Below are positions 3,867 through 62,942 of a stretch of DNA of 62,942 nt, in pieces (positions within the stretch are counted from its first letter, which is position 1; each line of letters begins with the position of its first letter). Both the position numbers and the translations under genes were made by a program. The stretch is from positions 1 through 62,942 of the IMG/VR virus record IMGVR_UViG_3300009152_000050; one strand, written 5' to 3'. The DNA is from a virus (taxonomy: Duplodnaviria > Caudoviricetes). The notes beneath the pieces are model-generated. The model searched no databases and was not told the origin of the DNA. It saw nothing but the letters and a program-made list of their open reading frames with translations.

Positions 3867-4055
3867 ATGAAAGAAACGAATTATATTATCTCCCCTATCA
3901 GCACTTATGATGATGATTTAGAGATGTTTTCAACTAAGATAGGACAGAAGGGGAAAGATATGCCACTACTGTATAGTACATGGGGGAAAACAGAACAGGA
4001 AAGCAGGATAAGGGCTGAATTACTAATTGATAACCTTTTAAATTTTAAACTATGA
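3867..4055 (+). CDS. Small early hypothetical protein
   Basis: ATG ORF; ATGA overlap with the next gene. Confidence 0.65.
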   Translation: MKETNYIISPISTYDDDLEMFSTKIGQKGKDMPLLYSTWGKTEQESRIRAELLIDNLLNFKL

Positions 4056-4249
4056 TTTGCAAAGAATATGATGAATTAACGCCAATAGAAAAAACTATCT
4101 TCATAGGTGAATTAGTCCATGCAGCTATGAATGATAGCGACCTATTTAGAATTTGCCAAAAGGTAGTAGATACTGCCATTGTAAAGGGGTTGTTTAATGG
4201 AGTGCAAATGATTCCTGACCCTATTGATAACCAAATAATACCAGAATAA
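4052..4249 (+). CDS. Small hypothetical protein
   Basis: Translationally coupled on both sides. Confidence 0.65.
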   Translation: MICKEYDELTPIEKTIFIGELVHAAMNDSDLFRICQKVVDTAIVKGLFNGVQMIPDPIDNQIIPE

Positions 4250-4539
4250 TGAAAAACTCAACGTTTGGTTTGCTGTTAATATTATTTTTCCTTATCTTGT
4301 ATCAAAATTACAACATGATATTACTTTCAATATTAGGCAGCCTAATTGGTATAGCCTCTATATATGCTCTTATTTCAGTTCTTAATATTAAGCGAAGTGA
4401 TGCAAAAAAGAAAAAGCAATTAGCAGAACAGAACCGGCTATTCTTTCAAAGACTAAGGGATAACGAAAGGTACAATGAGTTGTCCGATCTAAAAGATTGG
4501 GATTTAAACCAATATGATGATACATTTTCAAGTAATTAA
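4249..4539 (+). CDS. Small membrane protein
   Basis: Hydrophobic N-terminal segments. Confidence 0.6.
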   Translation: MKNSTFGLLLILFFLILYQNYNMILLSILGSLIGIASIYALISVLNIKRSDAKKKKQLAEQNRLFFQRLRDNERYNELSDLKDWDLNQYDDTFSSN

Positions 4540-4556
4540 CCATTAAAAAATAAAAC

Positions 4557-4832
4557 ATGACAGACATTTTAGAAACACTTGCAAAAACGTTTGAGCCATT
4601 ACCTACAATGGAGTTAGCTGCTATATGGTTAGAAAAGCCAGTAGTAACTAATGAAGGTAAGACAGTAAGACTTACAAAAGGCCATCAAGTATTAGTAGTA
4701 GATAATGAATTAACTGATATGATAGATGACCCTTCCCATCAAGTACTAAAAGTATTCGGTAAAAGTAATAGCGATTTCAGTATTTTGTTAGTGGATTTGA
4801 TTACATTTGATTTATTAACCATAAACCTTTAA
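4557..4832 (+). CDS. Hypothetical protein
   Basis: ATG ORF. Confidence 0.65.
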   Translation: MTDILETLAKTFEPLPTMELAAIWLEKPVVTNEGKTVRLTKGHQVLVVDNELTDMIDDPSHQVLKVFGKSNSDFSILLVDLITFDLLTINL

Positions 4833-4835
4833 AAA

Positions 4836-5096
4836 ATGGAGATTACACACACAAACGTAGGAAGTCCTAAATTAGCAGTAGGATATAAAGCAAATGTAAG
4901 AAGCAATACTGCACCAGAAATTGCGGAAACATTCACAGATGATAATGGAGAAGTACAGTACATACTATGTAATGGTAATACACAACCTAAAATAGTATAT
5001 GATGCTCTATGGAATCCAATAAAAGGTAAAGTAAACCTAAACAAACTATATAAAGGAGAAAACCCTGATAGAACTAAGCTATGGTATAAGGGATAA
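4836..5096 (+). CDS. Hypothetical protein; its TAA stop forms the first TAAC core of the cassette array
   Basis: ...AAG GGA TAA C at 5094-5097. Confidence 0.7.
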   Translation: MEITHTNVGSPKLAVGYKANVRSNTAPEIAETFTDDNGEVQYILCNGNTQPKIVYDALWNPIKGKVNLNKLYKGENPDRTKLWYKG

Positions 5097-5122
5097 CGTT
5101 TTGCGTATATACGAGGTACGCC
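5094..5122 (+). repeat. Truncated attC-like site A (left arm only)
   Basis: TAACGTTTTGCGTATA resembles the site D left arm (TAACGGTTTGCGTATA); no right arm found. Confidence 0.55.
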
Positions 5123-5148
5123 TTAACGAAATTATAAATTATAAACAA

Positions 5149-5349
5149 ATGGGAGATTACAGTTTCGATTTAAGACCACTAATTTGGTTAGGTGCATTTA
5201 TCATCCTTGCAATTTGGGGATGTTGGGAGTTGATTGATTGGTTATGGATAGACGATGCCATTCGTAGCACCAAACCAATTATACCCGAAATAGAATTGAT
5301 TATAAAAAATAATGTTGTAGATACTGTCTATGTGTATCGTCAGCCTTAA
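5149..5349 (+). CDS. Cassette 1: small membrane protein
   Basis: ATG at 5149, one TM segment; followed by TGCTTATAAC. Confidence 0.6.
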   Translation: MGDYSFDLRPLIWLGAFIILAIWGCWELIDWLWIDDAIRSTKPIIPEIELIIKNNVVDTVYVYRQP

Positions 5350-5356
5350 TTGCTTA

Positions 5357-5434
5357 TAACGTTTTCGGGCTTAGCGAAGTGGCTTTTGTGCGTTGGCTTG
5401 TGTGTCGGAAAGCCATTTTGCCAAACCCGTGTTA
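5357..5434 (+). repeat. attC-like hairpin B
   Basis: TAAC-gtttt-CGGGCTTAGCGAAGTGGCTTT ... AAAGCCATTTTGCCAAACCCG-t-GTTA. Confidence 0.85.
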
Positions 5435-5505
5435 TATGAAGTGCCGACTTATTTACGATAAAGCTCAATTGGAATACTAAACAGAAAAACAAAAAGAAAA
5501 AAAAC

Positions 5506-5688
5506 GTGGGAAATTTAAAAGTAAAAATAATTGATACCAATGGATTAAGTGAAGAAACTATATCCAAGATTGAAGATACTATGATTTATTTAGGTATGGA
5601 GCAAGTAGATGAATGTATGTTCTGCAAAATAAAGAATAGTAAAAACGAAGTATTAATGATATTCCCAGAAAGAATAATAAAACTATAA
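5506..5688 (+). CDS. Cassette 2 ORF a, hypothetical
   Basis: GTG-start ORF closely coupled to the next ORF. Confidence 0.5.
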   Translation: MGNLKVKIIDTNGLSEETISKIEDTMIYLGMEQVDECMFCKIKNSKNEVLMIFPERIIKL

Positions 5689-5690
5689 AT

Positions 5691-5954
5691 ATGGAAAACA
5701 CATTAAGTTTATTTGATGATTTAGAAAACGAATGGCAAAAAGAATGGAAGGATATGCCAGAGTTTATAACAAATAACAAAAAACCTTATCAGCAAATTAT
5801 TGTGTCATTTAAAAATTTTGATGATGTAAAAGAATTTGCAAAGAGATTAGGTTTAAATGTTACACCTAAAACAGATGCTTTATGGTTTCCAATGAAGGAT
5901 AAAGAAAGTGGATTACATTATGTAAATGATAATTGGAGTAAAGATGAAAAATAA
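5691..5954 (+). CDS. Cassette 2 ORF b, small partner of the TAGT-like glycosyltransferase
   Basis: W..MPEF...F...DD...F......T.KT..LWFP pattern recalled from proteins next to phage base-modifying GTs. Confidence 0.55.
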   Translation: MENTLSLFDDLENEWQKEWKDMPEFITNNKKPYQQIIVSFKNFDDVKEFAKRLGLNVTPKTDALWFPMKDKESGLHYVNDNWSKDEK

Positions 5955-6789
5955 ATACCCAATATTTATACCGACAAAAGGAAGGTTTAAAACACCACAG
6001 ACTATCAATATGTTTAAATCACATAATGTTGATTTTAGAATTGTTATAGAAAAACAAGAGTATGAGCAGTATTCTAAAATTATAGACAAATCAAAAATAA
6101 TAGTTGTTCCTCACCAAAACGAAGGATTGACTGTTACAAGGAATTGGATATGGGATTTTGCAGAAAATGAAGGACACGAAAAATTCTGGACATTTGACGA
6201 TAATATTGGTAGGGTTTACAGATGGAACAATAACACAAGATACCAATGTAAGGATGGAACATATTTAAAAGTAATTGAAGATTTTGCAGATAGATATAAT
6301 AACCTACACATAATTGGTATGAACTATATGTGTTTTTGTAAAAGTGGTGATAACATACCTCCATACTACCCTAATACAAGGATTTATAGTAATATGCTTT
6401 TACCGACAAATGTAAAACTATCTAATGGTGAAAAACTAAGAAACAAGTTGTTTTATAACGATGATACAGACCTTTGTTTAAGAGTTTTAAAGGATGGACT
6501 ACCTACTATACAAATCAATGCTTTTTTAATAGACAAGAGCCAAACAATGACAGTAAAAGGAGGGATGACAGATTACTATTTAAGTGATGAATGTAAAGGC
6601 AGATTAACATTTGCTGAAGAATTACAAAAGGCACATCCAGACGTAACGACTATAACTCAAAAGTTTGGGAGGTGGCATCACCACGTTAATTATAAACCTT
6701 TTAGAAAAAATAAGTTAATCCCAAAAGAAGGACTTATAATAAAAAAACAAGTCAATGAATATGGAATGGAACTTAAAAAAACTATTTAA
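5944..6789 (+). CDS. Cassette 2 ORF c: TET-associated/GREB1-like glycosyltransferase (putative DNA base modification)
   Basis: YPIFIPTKGR, TRNWIWD, FDDNI, YNDDTDL.LRVLKDG, KGGMT and GRWHHHVNY motifs. Confidence 0.75.
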   Translation: MKNKYPIFIPTKGRFKTPQTINMFKSHNVDFRIVIEKQEYEQYSKIIDKSKIIVVPHQNEGLTVTRNWIWDFAENEGHEKFWTFDDNIGRVYRWNNNTRYQCKDGTYLKVIEDFADRYNNLHIIGMNYMCFCKSGDNIPPYYPNTRIYSNMLLPTNVKLSNGEKLRNKLFYNDDTDLCLRVLKDGLPTIQINAFLIDKSQTMTVKGGMTDYYLSDECKGRLTFAEELQKAHPDVTTITQKFGRWHHHVNYKPFRKNKLIPKEGLIIKKQVNEYGMELKKTI

Positions 6790-6864
6790 AAGTGCGTTGG
6801 CTTTTTTCTTTTTGTTTTTCCTTCACGGATTTTCAATTGGAAACGGTCAGCAAGGCATTTCATA

Positions 6865-6990
6865 TAACGTTTTCGGGCTTGGCGAAGGCGGGGAGTTTAA
6901 CCACAAAAGTTTAATAGAATGACAGAAGATAATATAACCACAAATGTTCAATTGGAAAACGGAAGCCCCGCTTTTGCCAAACCCGTGTTA
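6865..6990 (+). repeat. attC-like hairpin C (loop contains the MTase start codon)
   Basis: TAAC-gtttt-CGGGCTTGGCGAAGGCGGGG ... CCCCGCTTTTGCCAAACCCG-t-GTTA; arms nearly identical to site B. Confidence 0.88.
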
Positions 6991-7629
6991 TGTGCTGGTG
7001 CGGTTTCAAAAGACGGAATTTCGTTAATAAACGGAGATTGTTTGCAAGCCTTACGAGGCTATGGCGATAATCATTTTAAGATAGCAATAGTTGACCCACC
7101 TTATGGAATTAATGCAGGTAAAATGACAATGGGAAGCGGTAAGCACAAATTTAGCAAAGACAAAGATTGGGATAGTGCAATACCAAGCGAAGAGTATTTT
7201 ACCGAATTATTTAGGGTGTCTGAAAATCAAATTGTGTGGGGTGGCAATTACTTTACTGAATTTTTACCGCCTACACCACATTGGCTTTTATGGGATAAGA
7301 AAAACCCAAATTTGAGCTTTGCTGAAGGTGAGTTGGCTTGGGTGCGAAAAGGTAAAAACCTGCGGATATTTCAACACTATTCAGCACAAGTTGAAGAAGG
7401 CGGCAAAATACACCCGACACAAAAGCCTGTAAAATTATACAGGTGGATATTAAACAACTACACAAGCGAAGGGGATTTGATTTTAGACACCCATTTGGGA
7501 AGCGGGTCAATCGCCATAGCCTGCCATCAAATGAAACGAAATTTAATAGCCTATGAGATTGATGAAGAATACTACCGAAAGGCTTGCAAACGATTTGAAG
7601 AACAAACTCGTCAAACTGCACTATGGTAG
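6919..7629 (+). CDS. Cassette 3: DNA methyltransferase, N6A/N4C beta class
   Basis: DPPY, HPTQKP, and D.HLGSGS motif I. Confidence 0.92.
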   Translation: MTEDNITTNVQLENGSPAFAKPVLCAGAVSKDGISLINGDCLQALRGYGDNHFKIAIVDPPYGINAGKMTMGSGKHKFSKDKDWDSAIPSEEYFTELFRVSENQIVWGGNYFTEFLPPTPHWLLWDKKNPNLSFAEGELAWVRKGKNLRIFQHYSAQVEEGGKIHPTQKPVKLYRWILNNYTSEGDLILDTHLGSGSIAIACHQMKRNLIAYEIDEEYYRKACKRFEEQTRQTALW

Positions 7630-7639
7630 CACTTGCACA

Positions 7640-7688
7640 TAACGGTTTGCGTATAAAAAATCGTTTTAATGTTTTTTATACGCTGTTA
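7640..7688 (+). repeat. attC-like hairpin D (short)
   Basis: TAAC-ggttt-GCGTATAAAAAA ... TTTTTTATACGC-t-GTTA. Confidence 0.85.
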
Positions 7689-7717
7689 GGTGTCTGGTTT
7701 TATTTAAAATTTGAGCG

Positions 7718-8233
7718 ATGGAAAAAATTATATTCTTAGATATTGACGGCGTTTTAGCAACTCCAAAATATTTGAAAGATGGACAATGGGCTTTAAACCC
7801 AGAAAAACAAAAACTGTTAGGTGAAATACTTACCCAAACAGATGCTAAAATTGTTTTATCTTCTTCATGGAGGTATGCGACTTTAGAAAAAACAAAAGAA
7901 CACATGGAAGCGGAAGGATTTTTGTTTAACGATAAATTGATTGGTGTTACAATTAGAGCATACCAATGGCTTGAACGTGGAACAGGGATACACTTATCAA
8001 TTCCAAGAGGTGTAGAGATAAAACAATGGGTTGATACTCATATTCATTCTGATAATGGTAAAAATTGGGAACGAAAGAAATTAGGCAAGGATTTTACCTA
8101 TGTGATATTAGATGATGAAAGTGATATGCTTTTGGAACACAGAAATAATTTTGTGCATACTAAAAGTGAAATAGGATTGACAGATGATGATGTTAGGAGT
8201 GCGGTGGCAATTTTAAATAAAACTTGCACCTAA
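7718..8233 (+). CDS. Cassette 4: HAD-family phosphatase (Swiss Army Knife RNA-repair-type HAD)
   Basis: FLDIDGV, LSSSWR, RG.EI..W and YVILDD motifs; stop TAA lies within the TAAC core. Confidence 0.85.
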   Translation: MEKIIFLDIDGVLATPKYLKDGQWALNPEKQKLLGEILTQTDAKIVLSSSWRYATLEKTKEHMEAEGFLFNDKLIGVTIRAYQWLERGTGIHLSIPRGVEIKQWVDTHIHSDNGKNWERKKLGKDFTYVILDDESDMLLEHRNNFVHTKSEIGLTDDDVRSAVAILNKTCT

Positions 8234-8285
8234 CGGGTATATGTAAACATTCTTTATAACTAAATGATAATTAAATAATTATGTT
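8231..8285 (-). other. Putative attI-like site (non-hairpin) at the 5' end of the recombinase
   Basis: Bottom strand reads ...ATATACCC-GTTAGGT; no hairpin partner; similar to 55766-55845. Confidence 0.6.
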
Positions 8286-9119
8286 ATGAATATCGGAAAG
8301 TATATACAGTTGTATTCCGAAGATTTACGATTGAAAAATTATGCTGAATCTTCTATTTCCAATTATGTATCACAGGTTAAATGTTTTTTAGAGCATTTTT
8401 CTGATGTAGCTACAAAGCCTTCTGAAATAAACGAAAGGCAAATAAAACAATGGCTACTTTCCGCTAATTCTATTAATGGAAGAAGGCATAGATTATCAGC
8501 ATTAAAGCTATTCTATTCGCTTACAGGTAAACAGCCGTTAAAATTTAAGCACATAGAATATCCTCGGTCAGAAAAAAAATTACCAATCGTTCTGTCTGTG
8601 GAAGAAGTACAGAAAATGTTTTCAGCGTGTTCTAATACAAAACACAAGTTAATATTGGCTATTTTGTACTCTTGCGGATTACGGGTTAGTGAATTGATAA
8701 GCCTTAAATGGAATAACATTGACAGGAGCAGGATGGTAATAAATATTATTGGAGCAAAAGGGAATAAAGACCGTCAAGTACCGTTACCTGAAATACTTAT
8801 TCCTTTATTAGAAAAATACTGGTATAAATACAAAACTAAAACATACATTTTAGAGGGGCAATTTAAAGATGTATATAGCAGCAGAAGTGTACTTGAAGTA
8901 GTTAAACAATTAGCAGAAAAAGCAGGGTTAAGGAAAGATGTTTGGACGCACTTAATTCGTCATTGCTATGGAACGCATCAGGTGGAAAGTGGAGTTGACA
9001 TAAATCTCATACAGAAAATACTTGGGCATAGCAATGTTAAGACAACTAATATCTATTTACATACCTCACATAACTTAATATCTCGTATTCAATCACCTTT
9101 AAATAGTATTAATTTATGA
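8286..9119 (+). CDS. Tyrosine recombinase, integron-integrase-like (no obvious IntI-specific insertion)
   Basis: LP.VLS.EEV, GLRVSE, KGNKDR, HLIRH, LGH..VKTT.IY, C-terminal IQSPL; 277 aa. Confidence 0.93.
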   Translation: MNIGKYIQLYSEDLRLKNYAESSISNYVSQVKCFLEHFSDVATKPSEINERQIKQWLLSANSINGRRHRLSALKLFYSLTGKQPLKFKHIEYPRSEKKLPIVLSVEEVQKMFSACSNTKHKLILAILYSCGLRVSELISLKWNNIDRSRMVINIIGAKGNKDRQVPLPEILIPLLEKYWYKYKTKTYILEGQFKDVYSSRSVLEVVKQLAEKAGLRKDVWTHLIRHCYGTHQVESGVDINLIQKILGHSNVKTTNIYLHTSHNLISRIQSPLNSINL

Positions 9120-9565
9120 AGCGACTACTAATTTTATTGTTATTAACATCTAAGTTATCTTATAGTCAAAAGTGGTGGAATATAACTAAGAATGATTTAC
9201 TGATAGTGGGAGTAGGTTTTGTAGGAGGTGGTGCAGATGCTTATAATCAACGTATCTTACATCATAAGTACGGAGCAGGAAAGCCATTTTGGGATTACTC
9301 TACATCGTATAAAAGGAAATATAAAGATTTTGAGAATGGAGATTTAAGAGCAGCATATCCCGGCAGTAAGACATGGTTAGTAATGACTACTGATGGCTAC
9401 CACCTTACAAGAGCAGTAGATAGGTTTCATTCATTATTTACGATTGGTATAACTGCGTATGAATGGAATGAATATAAAGGATGGGATAGGGTACTATTTA
9501 TTAGTAAGAAAGTACTACTGTCTGGCGTTAGTAATAGAATTGCATTTAATTTAATCTACAAATAA
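9116..9565 (+). CDS. Secreted/membrane hypothetical protein
   Basis: Signal peptide ending YSQ; overlaps the recombinase stop. Confidence 0.7.
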   Translation: MKRLLILLLLTSKLSYSQKWWNITKNDLLIVGVGFVGGGADAYNQRILHHKYGAGKPFWDYSTSYKRKYKDFENGDLRAAYPGSKTWLVMTTDGYHLTRAVDRFHSLFTIGITAYEWNEYKGWDRVLFISKKVLLSGVSNRIAFNLIYK

Positions 9566-9577
9566 ACCCACCTAATT

Positions 9578-10039
9578 ATGAAAGTTTTAATCACCCTCAA
9601 CCTAATTTTAATTTTATCAATCCCTTCATTTACCCAACCTTATTTTGGGATAGGATTGCAGAACAAAGGCTTTAATATGAGTTTAGGAATAGTCGCAGAT
9701 AATATTGATGCACAAATCAACTTTAAAACCCCATTAACATCGGCAGAAGAATCAAAGGTACTATCTCTTACTATTGGTAGAATGATTAATATAACCAATA
9801 ATGATGAAGATAACTACTCCATTACCCCCTTATTAGGAATAGGATGGAGTAAGTATCAAGATTTTAGCCAGTACGATTTAGATGATAAAGCAGCCATTAT
9901 AGACGTTAATAAGTTTAGTGGGGTATATGGCTTAGAAATCGGAAAAGATGCCCACGTTGGTCGCATATCGCTTATGGGAAGGTATTGTGATAGTAAGATG
10001 TACTATGGTGTAACAATGAGAGTATTTTTTAGCAGATAG
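9578..10039 (+). CDS. Putative small outer-membrane beta-barrel protein
   Basis: Signal peptide, alternating beta pattern, aromatic C-terminus YYGVTMRVFFSR. Confidence 0.6.
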   Translation: MKVLITLNLILILSIPSFTQPYFGIGLQNKGFNMSLGIVADNIDAQINFKTPLTSAEESKVLSLTIGRMINITNNDEDNYSITPLLGIGWSKYQDFSQYDLDDKAAIIDVNKFSGVYGLEIGKDAHVGRISLMGRYCDSKMYYGVTMRVFFSR

Positions 10040-10057
10040 CAGGTTGATTAGTAAATG

Positions 10058-10090
10058 AAAAGTCGGTTACGTATTGTAGCCGACTTTTTT
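10058..10090. terminator. Bidirectional intrinsic terminator at the convergence point
   Basis: AAAAGTCGGTTAC-gtatt-GTAGCCGACTTTTTT. Confidence 0.85.
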
Positions 10091-10592
10091 ATTTGCTGGT
10101 GTTCTTTAAAAATGACTTTAATCTATTGTATTGAAAATAAACATCTTTACCTGATTTTATGGCCTTTATTTCAGCATCATTCATCCCTACTTTTTTACAG
10201 AATGAAAGGGTATAAGTGTGCATTAGTTTAAGGTTATTCAGTCTTGCCCTTCCGTATTCTTCTTTTGCCTTTCCCTTTTCATCTATGGTAATTTCATCAA
10301 AGCCAAAATGATACATTCCAAAAGTAAATGGCAGTATCTTTCTTTCACACTTTACGGAAAAAAACAATTCAAAAGCACTACTATGTATCTCTCCTATTGC
10401 TGTTAATGTGCATTTTTCTGGGCAACTTTCAATCATGTTCTGAATAGTGTAAAATACTGATATATTACCCCCTACGCTATCTATATAAATGTCTTTTTTC
10501 TTTTGGCTTGTTTTTTCAGAATCATTCCATTCCTTTACAAACTTTTGCAAAAGGTCGTTATCCCCAAATCCATTTATAGATATGATGCTCAT
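10089..10592 (-). CDS. ClpP-like serine protease
   Basis: IYIDSVGG, IHSSAF and GMYH motifs. Confidence 0.7.
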   Translation of the reverse strand: MSIISINGFGDNDLLQKFVKEWNDSEKTSQKKKDIYIDSVGGNISVFYTIQNMIESCPEKCTLTAIGEIHSSAFELFFSVKCERKILPFTFGMYHFGFDEITIDEKGKAKEEYGRARLNNLKLMHTYTLSFCKKVGMNDAEIKAIKSGKDVYFQYNRLKSFLKNTSK

Positions 10593-10593
10593 T

Positions 10594-10761
10594 TTATTTA
10601 ATCTTAGGGTACATTTGCCTTTCCAATAATTTAATTTGTTCCTCCAATGGCATTATAACATTTTGCTTTATGTGTTTTGCTTCTCGGTGCTTTGCATTGT
10701 ACTCTCTTTCTGCTGCATCTTTTCTGTCGCAAAGTTCTTTATGTTTTTTATAGTTATCCAT
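10594..10761 (-). CDS. Small coiled-coil hypothetical protein (55 aa, not in ORF track)
   Basis: MDNYKKHKELCDRKDAAEREY...; fills the gap between neighbouring genes. Confidence 0.55.
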   Translation of the reverse strand: MDNYKKHKELCDRKDAAEREYNAKHREAKHIKQNVIMPLEEQIKLLERQMYPKIK

Positions 10762-10763
10762 TA

Positions 10764-11630
10764 TTATAATTTTTCTTTACGTGCTTGTTTTGACATACTC
10801 ATTTTTAGCTTAGTTTCATCTGTGTGTTTCCTCCCTGTGGATAGTTTTCTGAAATACTCTCTATATTCTGCGGAACGTGGAGGCATCTTTGTTCCAGTAT
10901 GAGCCTTTATAATTTTTTTTCTGCCTCTTTCTTTTATATCGTTAGGATGTTCAAGTATAAATAACCCATCTCTTGACTTAATTGGAGATAATATATTACT
11001 CCTTGTTAAGAAATATCCAGACGGATGCAGCCTTCTATTTATATAGCGGCTCATAGTACTCATACTTGTGTTAAAATAGTCCGCAATAGCCTGTAATGAC
11101 TTACAAGTAGTAATTAATATACCTGTTGTAGAATATACGTATATAACGCCTTTGTAATTAGGATTGCCTACTCCTTGATAATTTTCTATACATAACTTTC
11201 TTGAATCTTCTATTTGTTTAAGTGTTTTTGCCCTACCCTTACTCTTTTCAGACATTTTTTTCTTAGTAGCCTCTGTATGCTTTTTGCCCGTCCATGCTCC
11301 TTTTTTATTTCTCTCTGCCAACTTTGGATTTTTAATACCAAGTACCCCATCCCCTCCTTTTGTAAGATTAGCGAGTGTACCTCCATCACAAGACCGACCA
11401 TATATCTCTATAAACTCTATTTCTTTCTGTTTAGCTGTATCATAAGGTATATCTTGGAAAAGAATTTGTACATCTATTGGAGTTTTATTATAAATAGCCA
11501 TCCAATATTTGTTCCTATGTCTTGGGTCGTGATTGTACGCACGTTCATAATTAGGACTATCTCTTTTAGATATTCCTATATAAAATACTTTATTAGTATC
11601 AACCCTTATATGCCTATATACGTATGCCAT
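10764..11630 (-). CDS. GIY-YIG homing endonuclease with NUMOD3 repeats
   Basis: YVYRH...FYIGI, NLTKGGDG, and GKKHTEATKKKMS / GRKHTDETKLKMS. Confidence 0.88.
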   Translation of the reverse strand: MAYVYRHIRVDTNKVFYIGISKRDSPNYERAYNHDPRHRNKYWMAIYNKTPIDVQILFQDIPYDTAKQKEIEFIEIYGRSCDGGTLANLTKGGDGVLGIKNPKLAERNKKGAWTGKKHTEATKKKMSEKSKGRAKTLKQIEDSRKLCIENYQGVGNPNYKGVIYVYSTTGILITTCKSLQAIADYFNTSMSTMSRYINRRLHPSGYFLTRSNILSPIKSRDGLFILEHPNDIKERGRKKIIKAHTGTKMPPRSAEYREYFRKLSTGRKHTDETKLKMSMSKQARKEKL

Positions 11631-54595: not shown

Positions 54596-54736
54596 ATGAA
54601 AAAATTATTCAGAAAAATTATTGCAATATACAATCGTTGTAGATACTGCGGAAGAACAATAGAAGATACTGGTGCTGGTTCTGAACCAAGACCTAATATG
54701 TGTGAAAGATGTTTTGAAAACGGAGGGGATGAATAA
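54596..54736 (+). CDS. Small zinc-finger protein (46 aa); its stop codon forms a TAAC core
   Basis: CRYC...CERC; GAA TAA C at 54734. Confidence 0.55.
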   Translation: MKKLFRKIIAIYNRCRYCGRTIEDTGAGSEPRPNMCERCFENGGDE

Positions 54737-54823
54737 CGAATGGTGCTATGAGCAGGTTTGCCTTGCAGAAATGTTCAAATTTAGCACAAATTTTATTGGC
54801 AAACTTGCTTATAGCACGTGTTA
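54734..54823 (+). repeat. attC-like hairpin F
   Basis: TAAC-gaatg-GTGCTATGAGCAGGTTTGCC ... GGCAAACTTGCTTATAGCAC-gt-GTTA. Confidence 0.85.
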
Positions 54824-54883
54824 TACGCTGGCACGGGTGATTTAGAAGAATGTTTAATTGGAATACGGTAAAAAAGAAAATAA

Positions 54884-55672
54884 ATGCGAAGCGAGGGGAA
54901 AATAGAATTGTTTAATGAGGACTGTATGCTAACTATGAAACGGATAGCATCAGGGACGGTTGATTTGATATTGACTGACCCGCCATATAACACAACGCAA
55001 TGTGAATGGGAATATGATATTGATTTAACGGCTTTATGGGCTGAATGGCAAAGGATATTGAAGCCCAATGGAGTAATATGTGTTTTTGCAGATGAACCAT
55101 TTACAAGCCGTTTAATCGTTTCAAAATTGGATTGGTTTAAAATTAGGATTACTTGGGATAAAATGACTGGCTCAAACTTTTTGAATGCTAAAAAAATGCC
55201 GTTAAAACAAACTGAAGATGTAGTAATTTTTTCAGGCGTTAAAAATGGGCAATACACTTACAACCCGATTTTAACTGATAAACCTAAACACAATATAAGA
55301 CCCGTTGGAAATAGAAAGCCAAGTGTAAATAATACTACATACGGACAACACAGCGGACAATATTCAGCGGATTACGACCCAACAAAGAACTATCCGACAA
55401 ACTTACTTTCAATAATGGCAAAGCAAGATGAATGTAATAGCGTGAACCGATGGCATCCAACTCAAAAACCTACAGAGATTATGCAATGGCTTGTAAAGAC
55501 ATTTAGCAACCAACACGAAATTGTTTTTGATGGATATAGTGGAAGCGGAGTAACTGCCATTGCTTGTGAAATTGAAAATAGAAACTTTATAGGAAGTGAA
55601 TTGAATGAGGAATATTACAAAAAAGCATTACAACGAATTAAAGATGAAACAGCACAACTTAAAATATTTTAA
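54884..55672 (+). CDS. DNA methyltransferase, N6A/N4C beta class (cassette cargo)
   Basis: TDPPY, HPTQKP, DGYSGSG. Confidence 0.92.
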   Translation: MRSEGKIELFNEDCMLTMKRIASGTVDLILTDPPYNTTQCEWEYDIDLTALWAEWQRILKPNGVICVFADEPFTSRLIVSKLDWFKIRITWDKMTGSNFLNAKKMPLKQTEDVVIFSGVKNGQYTYNPILTDKPKHNIRPVGNRKPSVNNTTYGQHSGQYSADYDPTKNYPTNLLSIMAKQDECNSVNRWHPTQKPTEIMQWLVKTFSNQHEIVFDGYSGSGVTAIACEIENRNFIGSELNEEYYKKALQRIKDETAQLKIF

Positions 55673-55867
55673 TGGTTTTGAAAAAACCAACAGAAGCGTG
55701 GGGCATTTATTTTCTTTTTTACTTCCACAAAAGTTCAATTGGAACACGGATGTAGTGCTTGCGTATAACATAAAATATGTACGTTTCCTTTGTAATTAAT
55801 TAATTTAAAGCTACTTATGATATGTTTCCTGAACGTATCGGTAGTCTTATTCAGTAAACTATAAACT

Positions 55868-62819: not shown

Positions 62820-62942
62820 CAAAGATACAACACCCTATTTAATTATCCAAATTTATTTTATTAAATAACCATATTTAAGTGTAAAGAGATTGATGAGTGG
62901 TAACTAATAAGGATGAGTGGAGGCCAATTAACGGCCAATTAC
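62820..62942 (-). repeat. Right inverted terminal repeat with inward promoter
   Basis: Exact reverse complement of 1-123. Confidence 0.97.

Follow-up and report, generated by a model that had tools for sequence, protein, structure and literature searches.

We report what is probably an integron-like gene-cassette system carried by a phage, in which a tyrosine recombinase would act on the folded plus strand of hairpin-bearing sites. It was found in virus record IMGVR_UViG_3300009152_000050 of IMG/VR (Duplodnaviria; Caudoviricetes), a complete record of 62,942 bp with a completeness rating of 100% that was analyzed in full (hereafter, the window). There, head-to-tail cassettes lie upstream of the gene for a 277-aa recombinase related to Xer and IntI. 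The case is comparative and draws on the anatomy and strand asymmetry of the sites, the complementarity of cassette ends, breakpoints at a TAAC core, insertion next to the recombinase gene and the absence from the enzyme of the insertion typical of IntI. We propose more tentatively, with slightly less than even confidence, that a large IntI-like lineage found in phages and bacteria, which lost the I2 insertion or never acquired it, recombines folded single-stranded hairpins, with the strand chosen by fixed G.T pairs and a 5/1 nt spacer, and that its phage branch acts as a "counter-defense integron" in which DNA methyltransferases and other anti-restriction genes are stored and swapped. No published account of such a hairpin-cassette system was found in open-access papers and bioRxiv.

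The window was scanned for structures of the form TAAC, 4-5 nt spacer, stem, loop, stem, 1-2 nt spacer, GTTA. Four hairpins were found on the plus strand and none on the minus strand, and hairpins of the same build were absent from 100 dinucleotide-preserving shuffles of the window. They are given here together with a half hairpin, site A:

5094..5151, plus strand: site A, half hairpin with TAAC, gtttt, left arm and an ATG-bearing loop; right arm absent
5357..5434, plus strand: hairpin B, TAAC-gtttt, 21 bp stem, 22 nt loop, t-GTTA
6865..6990, plus strand: hairpin C, TAAC-gtttt, 20 bp stem, 72 nt loop, t-GTTA; the loop contains the ATG (6919) of the following open reading frame (ORF)
7640..7688, plus strand: hairpin D, TAAC-ggttt, perfect 12 bp stem, 11 nt loop, t-GTTA; fold z -4.27
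54734..54823, plus strand: hairpin F, TAAC-gaatg, 20 bp stem, 35 nt loop, gt-GTTA

All four stems are ungapped, and their minimum-energy DNA folds contain only 1x1 mismatches and zero single-base bulges; the window hairpins show no extrahelical bases of the attC kind. Stem imperfections amount to two G.T, one C.A and one A.C in hairpin B, two G.T and one C.A in hairpin C, and two G.T in hairpin F, with none in hairpin D. A first-pass annotation made from the letters alone had described an asymmetric loop of 5 nt versus 1-2 nt beside the core, stems of 12-21 bp without bulges and a majority of G.T among plus-strand imperfections (both in F, two of three in C, two of four in B). The scan recovers the same spacers (gtttt/t, gtttt/t, ggttt/t and gaatg/gt), the folds agree on the stems and the pair counts match. 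Hairpin F sits 47 kb beyond the stretch 5357-7688 which that annotation covered, and has a near-identical copy in viral contig L011 (6335-6424). Among 318 distinct hairpins from viral loci, 214 have a 5' spacer of 5 nt and 220 a 3' spacer of 1 nt, and stems of 20 bp are the most frequent.

A scan for intrinsic terminators (a G+C-rich stem followed by a T run) called none of the hairpins, and Rfam gave 0 matches to the hairpin region 4500-9500 at E up to 1. The motif ATAACGKTTT, searched across the whole window with one mismatch allowed, is not enriched (20 matches against 18.2 expected); the relevant copies are the four exact ones, which are clustered. Comparisons with other metagenomes (runs X3, X4 and X7) used assembled contigs aligned to the window, not raw reads. 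Contigs of all three runs follow site A as far as 5151, beyond which they carry the absent right arm and a GTT, and in X4 contigs the match breaks at 5093, adjoining site A. Contigs of these runs give no cover of the phage backbone at 4000-5000 and 8400-10000, which we do not count as evidence of its absence there. The ATG in the site A loop opens a small membrane-like ORF.

Three cassettes lie among the hairpins upstream of the recombinase gene, and a lone cassette of the same form as those of the main array occupies 54734-55769:

5435..6864, plus strand: cassette 1, with ORFs at 5506-5688 and 5691-5954 and a TET-associated glycosyltransferase at 5926-6789 (Pfam TAGT, 1.8e-31)
6919..7629, plus strand: cassette 2 gene, N6/N4 DNA methyltransferase (Pfam N6_N4_Mtase, 2.3e-21)
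7718..8233, plus strand: cassette 3 gene, HAD_SAK_2 phosphatase-like (Pfam, 1.1e-23)
8223..8245, plus strand: attI-like site by the recombinase gene, consisting of a cassette end, TAAC (8231-8234), GGGTA and TATGTA
8286..9119, plus strand: tyrosine recombinase, 277 aa, with Phage_integrase and SAM_4 domains
54884..55672, plus strand: lone cassette gene, second N6/N4 DNA methyltransferase with a DPPYN motif, one of four N6/N4 members of the cargo

The two ends of a cassette are complementary to each other. In the window, the flank to the right of GTTA (y) is the reverse complement of the flank to the left of the next TAAC (y'): the ends of cassette 1 (5431-5445 and 6854-6868) are complementary at 14/15 positions, and those of cassette 3 pair between 7685-7711 and 8209-8234, with 15/15 complementarity between 7697-7711 and 8209-8223. 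This rule holds in at least 6/8 bases for 19 of 22 pairs of adjacent hairpins, and just 1 of 31 hairpins has two flanks of its own that reach the same level, low-scoring hits distant from arrays (L003 7983, L006 14689 and W 14282) having been excluded before counting. Among 221 distinct end pairs, positions 9, 10 and 11, which played no part in selecting the pairs, are Watson-Crick in 199, 196 and 164 cases, and position 7 is a T.G pair in 191. A free cassette would therefore close a 15-bp stem beneath its hairpin. In cassette 1, an inner inverted repeat (5484-5519 / 6785-6820) was also seen, which together with the ends amounts to ~70 nt of imperfect complementarity per end.

The attI-like site at the recombinase gene has no hairpin and is a constant companion of that gene. 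We collected 16 viral contigs encoding recombinase homologues with 56-71% identity, and in 17/17 loci (the window included) a hairpin-less site lies about 60 nt upstream of the recombinase start codon. It consists of a cassette end, TAAC and 5-7 nt, followed in 16/17 by T(A/T)TGTA. All 12 loci for which 0.7 kb or more of sequence upstream is available contain hairpins of the same build. Counted over L001-L016 and L019, the recombinase strand carries 24 hairpins and the opposite strand one.

Related phage contigs carry differing cassettes between a common backbone and the recombinase gene, and the places where they diverge delimit the mobile unit. L005 8208-8524 and L010 2806-3124 are 89.7% identical over a segment that runs from one TAAC to the next, after which L010 has four more cassettes before the hairpin that comes next in L005. 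The recombinases of L007 and L010 are near-identical and the sequences match on both sides, with ~3.4 kb of extra cassettes in L010 placed precisely between y'-TAAC and ATAGAATATGTA. These breaks define a unit composed of spacer, hairpin, GTTA, y, genes, y' and TAAC, inserted beside the recombinase gene. When loci with a common hairpin type are compared, 75 pairs resemble each other downstream of the hairpin and 15 upstream of it (the pairs being non-independent). A 1677-nt contig of run X4 holds the HAD cassette (7682-8236, 35 differences) amid otherwise dissimilar sequence, and X3 and X4 contigs span 6981-7602, within the cassette 2 gene, with 0-3 differences. Viewed on the opposite strand, the arrangement reads as an integron layout: a putative attI ending in GTTA (split as G/TTA), followed by cassettes whose palindromes lie distally. 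On this mapping, the plus strand of the window would correspond to the bottom strand of attC, with the crossover in its 5' AAC.

"Empty" forms of cassette 1 were observed in runs X3 and X4, with joints 5443->6856 and 5504->6785 and little or nothing between; in L010 and L011, too, hairpins stand merely ~25 nt apart.

The recombinase possesses all the expected catalytic residues (R133, K158, H222, R225, H248 and Y257), which are invariant across the 16 homologues, as well as the motifs KGNKDR and HLIRH. Its best curated profile is that of archaeal XerA (NF040815, 199.5 bits against a cut-off of 220); the integron integrase profile TIGR02249 gives 167.6 bits in two stretches (cut-off 265), XerD 165 bits (cut-off 329.6) and XerC 158.3 bits (cut-off 335.15). 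About 42 residues are missing where IntI has its specific insertion, the I2 helix between the KGxKDR strand and HxLRH. When aligned to VchIntIA (2a3v) with phmmer, query residue 177 falls on chain residue 179 and query residue 201 on chain residue 245, and in an alignment with IntI1 (L236) and a Vibrio IntI (L237), both drawn from plasmid records, the two IntIs carry 31+11 residues not found in the 277-aa enzyme. An AlphaFold model (mean predicted local distance difference test score 77.8) places a 16-residue loop at this position. The closest folds according to Foldseek are XerA (5hxy, 4a8e) and next VchIntIA, the 2a3v alignment spanning 322 columns for 277 residues. A C-terminal SPL(D) motif is common to the recombinase and IntI. 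In a tree built from a quick search, the phage enzymes, the hairpin-associated bacterial enzymes described below and IntI fall together with branch support 99, and 27 Bacteroidota Xer-like proteins lie on the opposite side. This tree holds two IntI only and neither proteobacterial XerC/D nor archaeal XerA; given such thin sampling, we therefore claim no sister relation.

The two strands of the hairpins are not equivalent. In 31 hairpins that were not picked by sequence, the stems contain 455 Watson-Crick pairs, 52 G.T/T.G, 9 A.C/C.A and 13 other; in the 318 distinct hairpins, mostly of one family, the corresponding counts are 5148, 630, 144 and 115, and, counting from the apex, G.T occupies the seventh base pair in 176 and the tenth in 131. 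When folded as DNA, the plus strand is the more stable one in 27/31 hairpins (Wilcoxon p 1.8e-5). All 41 cassette ORFs of the phage arrays, those of L005-L016 and the window, lie on the wobble strand and read towards the attI-like site and the recombinase gene, and 15 of them start at an ATG within a hairpin loop and read through the right arm.

Relatives in bacteria separate the wobbles from the direction of the genes. Their recombinase genes are:

9389-10810: L025, Pedobacter
9695-10819: L022, Crocinitomicaceae metagenome-assembled genome
9545-10786: L026, Fusibacter
7503-8810: L238, Fulvitalea plasmid

The recombinases of these loci share 32-40% identity with the phage enzyme and miss the same ~42 residues. 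Their arrays, which resemble the phage arrays in hairpin anatomy, mismatch positions and enzyme gap, are found on the downstream side of the recombinase gene, and their hairpins are mirror images (TAAC, 1 nt, stem, loop, stem, 5 nt, GTTA). Read along the ORF strand, the stems of L025, L022 and L026 contain 37 A.C and 3 G.T, at positions matching those of the phage hairpins; in Pedobacter, Fulvitalea and Fusibacter, the cassette genes are encoded opposite the wobble strand. The wobbles thus track the geometry of the site rather than the direction of transcription, which favors folded DNA over RNA as the structure that matters. We found no literature description of the Pedobacter, Crocinitomicaceae, Fulvitalea or Fusibacter arrays, and no canonical IntI scored above the cut-off in 3 bacterial and 14 control genomes. 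The bacterial recombinases carry an extra 100-190 N-terminal residues not present in the phage enzymes, with no NCBIfam match at E up to 1e-10. In Fusibacter (L026 13239-14167), three identical hairpins stand ~380 nt apart, which suggests tandem duplicate cassettes.

The first-pass annotation had also proposed that the enzyme lacks the IntI insertion, that it and its hairpins form a distinct recombinase/site pair, and that it acts on the folded plus strand. The first proposal is borne out by the phmmer match to 2a3v and the alignment with IntI1 and Vibrio IntI, where the ~42-residue gap appears, and by the 16-residue loop of the predicted structure. The second finds support in the TAAC site of 17/17 loci, the hairpins of 12/12, the cassette swaps at TAAC and the missing insertion. 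For the third, support is indirect and comes from the fixed wobbles, the stability of 27/31 hairpins, the polarity of the crossover and the antisense wobbles of bacteria; use of a single strand and catalysis by this enzyme are presumed.

These observations suggest how the system might work. A free cassette, presumably circular and with one site, would pair y'-TAAC with GTTA-y into an "R" stem of 15 bp that includes a fixed T.G wobble. An asymmetric internal loop of 5 nt/1 nt would link this R stem to an "L" stem of ~20 bp, with fixed G.T wobbles and a variable apical loop. The recombinase would bind the folded plus-strand structure and cleave in or beside the 5' TAAC, and the cleaved strand would be exchanged with another hairpin or with the hairpin-less TAAC-N5-TATGTA, which lies about 50 nt ahead of the enzyme's own start codon. 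The resulting junction could be resolved through replication, as in attC x attI.

Hairpins of this type reach well beyond the loci with a recombinase gene. One 19-base hairpin arm occurs in at least 119 viral contigs, next to 72 distinct left-flank 8-mers, and 91 of its 129 occurrences belong to a full hairpin, with TAAC upstream of the matching arm; this count started from the right arm, whereas the structure scan itself required the TAAC/GTTA core. At E 1e-30 or better, the recombinase family is represented in metagenomes by 3921 protein clusters, of which the named ones are called only XerD. A pattern-based search of 185,579 species, one genome each, returned the phage-like contig L019 at 59% identity and none at 41-58%, among the best 80 of at least 600 matches.

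Several observations weigh against an integron-like system acting on the folded plus strand. Three of the 22 adjacent pairs miss the end rule, and for 85 of 308 hairpins the fetched sequence contains no partner end, which may reflect short stretches. The gap in stability between strands is small (mean -13.96 versus -12.38 kcal/mol, ~1.6 kcal/mol), and the 318-hairpin census consists mostly of one family chosen by the 19-mer, so that its rows are non-independent. Since the wobble strand in phages is also the mRNA strand, G.U pairing in RNA would fit the phage data alone. Furthermore, a recombinase homologue is encoded in only 2 of 15 long viral records with a B/C-type hairpin, and in 0 of 4 such records rated complete. 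Sites are thus maintained, and may be mobile, when no enzyme is encoded in cis, which weakens the link between site and enzyme; these enzyme-free hairpin arrays resemble the CALINs of integrons (attC clusters without an integrase). Finally, both neighbors of hairpin D differ in X3, where the match breaks at 7640 and at 7688, and hairpins B and C have common arms and different cargo, indicating that breakpoints are not solely at the 5' TAAC.

Could the substrate of the enzyme instead be duplex DNA, as for Xer at dif or pdif? TAAC core sites or an extruded cruciform would then be used, and the arms would serve binding or accessory roles with no choice of strand. XerA, XerD and XerC, to which the enzyme bears its best profile and fold matches, are duplex recombinases, the IntI element that reads extrahelical bases is missing, and the gene-side site has no hairpin. 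Nevertheless, cassette ends covary at variable positions (9-11), which points to a need for base pairing rather than recognition by a protein, and the wobbles are fixed to one strand. The distance from TAAC to GTTA is 50-130 bp, far exceeding the central region of a duplex site. Direct reading of the sequence also shows that the left arm does not repeat the y' arm in inverted form. We consider a duplex-acting enzyme unlikely.

Alternatively, the hairpins could be RNA regulatory modules, such as 5' untranslated region structures or long-range stems that enclose cistrons and possibly signal processing, with cassettes shuffled by homologous or illegitimate recombination and the recombinase uninvolved. 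The position of all 41 cassette ORFs on the wobble strand, with 15 starting in a hairpin loop, agrees with such a role, as does the frequency of hairpins in recombinase-free records. The same hairpin and A-rich leader are moreover conserved before differing genes (L128, L132, L148, L156, L161 and L195). Against this, the wobbles of the bacterial relatives are antisense to the ORFs, breaks fall exactly at TAAC instead of being scattered along the conserved arms, the TAAC core recurs at the hairpin-less site by every recombinase gene, and neither the terminator scan nor Rfam recognized the hairpins. An explanation at the RNA level appears quite improbable to us. The least probable alternative, and a very doubtful one, is that the recombinase is a phage lysogeny integrase with TAAC-N5-TATGTA as attP, and that another enzyme, for example of the host, moves the cassettes: phage integrases do normally have their attachment site beside the gene, hairpins are present without the enzyme, and relatives with 35-40% identity exist in Bacteroidota genomes, but among the best 80 loci only L019 reaches 59% and the next at most 40%, despite the 3921 metagenome clusters, cassettes insert exactly at TAAC-N5-TATGTA, and the TAAC core is common to that site and the hairpins.

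The proposed integron-like system shares with integrons a tyrosine recombinase gene beside a hairpin-less insertion site where new cassettes enter, and head-to-tail cassettes with one imperfect palindrome (50-130 nt) each and an AAC/GTT core. In both, the beginning of each cassette can pair with the inverse core at that cassette's opposite end, and one strand is favored for folding. In integrons, cassette genes are promoterless and read away from attI, from an attI/intI promoter. The phage cassette genes, by contrast, point to the insertion site and the recombinase, with the hairpin at their 5' end, often including the start codon. Other differences are the lack of the IntI insertion, fixed G.T wobbles in place of extrahelical bases, a 5/1 nt central spacer instead of a roughly symmetric bubble, an R stem of 15 bp, and carriage by a phage. 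Three hallmarks of integrons are thus missing (insertion, extrahelical bases and orientation) and three are present (the core and end rule, the gene-side site and insertion there), and we accordingly class the system apart from integrons proper.

Other known systems share parts of this organization. In the CTX case, a host Xer without the IntI insertion swaps one strand between folded phage single-stranded DNA and duplex dif, and the whole phage integrates. Integration of CTX phage by XerCD, through its folded single strand, is the subject of PMC3442271. In the window, the enzyme is phage-encoded and the units are small arrayed cassettes, unlike in the CTX case. Archaeal XerA is of similar length and is the best profile and fold match. 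XerA resolves chromosome dimers at duplex dif; no dif-type site or dimer-resolution role is evident at the window locus. A dif-type site has two inverted ~11-bp arms and a 6-8 bp spacer; by eye, the gene-side site shows no inverted arm. T4-type phages have promoter-stem-loop cassettes proposed to be shuffled by homologous or illegitimate recombination, and the pdif modules of Acinetobacter plasmids have inverted recombinase-binding arms on their flanks. Like both, the window holds small modules with short repeated boundaries in hypervariable regions; unlike them, it has a dedicated recombinase gene ending the array, long hairpin boundaries with a fixed 4-nt core, and module ends that pair.

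The account of integrons given in two papers (PMC4792948; PMC7790495) holds that integron integrases gained single-strand recombination through the I2 helix, which reads extrahelical bases, and the roles of the I2 helix and of the extrahelical bases are stated in PMC4792948. An abundant relative without I2, tied to attC-like hairpins with another strand mark, would make this I2-acquisition account directly testable; if the more tentative lineage-wide reading is true, hairpin recombination predates, or is independent of, the insertion now credited with enabling it. The system would also add cassette capture to the repertoire of phages, and its small recombinase and compact structured site could be put to use as a tool. 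For comparison, the IntegronFinder 2.0 preprint lists a single complete integron for each of Bacteroidetes and Firmicutes, and a 2026 survey of Acinetobacter phages found no integron elements.

The cargo comprises 39 cassette ORFs, among which are nine DNA methyltransferases (4 C5, 4 N6/N4 and 1 Dam), together with Lar, two HAD_SAK_2 proteins, a TET-associated glycosyltransferase and a PAPS-reductase domain protein. This richness in DNA-modification genes suggests a gene store against host restriction. Fast swapping of anti-restriction genes would mirror the defense-gene stores reported for chromosomal integrons in 10.1101/2024.07.02.601686.

At the DNA level, likeness of the window to named phages (Flavobacterium and other Bacteroidota phages) is confined to a single methyltransferase gene, and a search of phage records found no related cassette array, the similarity to Flavobacterium phages being that of the methyltransferase only. 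Positions 1-123 and 62820-62942 form a perfect 123-nt inverted repeat at both ends of the record, which could be genuine genome ends or an assembly artifact. A motif, TTCAATTGGAA(A)ACGG, recurs at 5460-5477, 6824-6860 and 6939-6975 and also near 54850 and 55730; it lies 25-30 nt inside the cassette ends and in the loop of hairpin C.

A second attI-like site follows the lone methyltransferase cassette:

55751..55860, plus strand: second attI-like site, consisting of a cassette end, TAAC (55766-55769) and then ATAAAATATGTA, aligned with sequence preceding the recombinase gene of L016, L012 and L009

It is succeeded by a remnant of a recombinase gene, ~15 first codons from the ATG at 55817, and then by unrelated sequence. 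The site and remnant look like a decayed recombinase locus behind the lone cassette.

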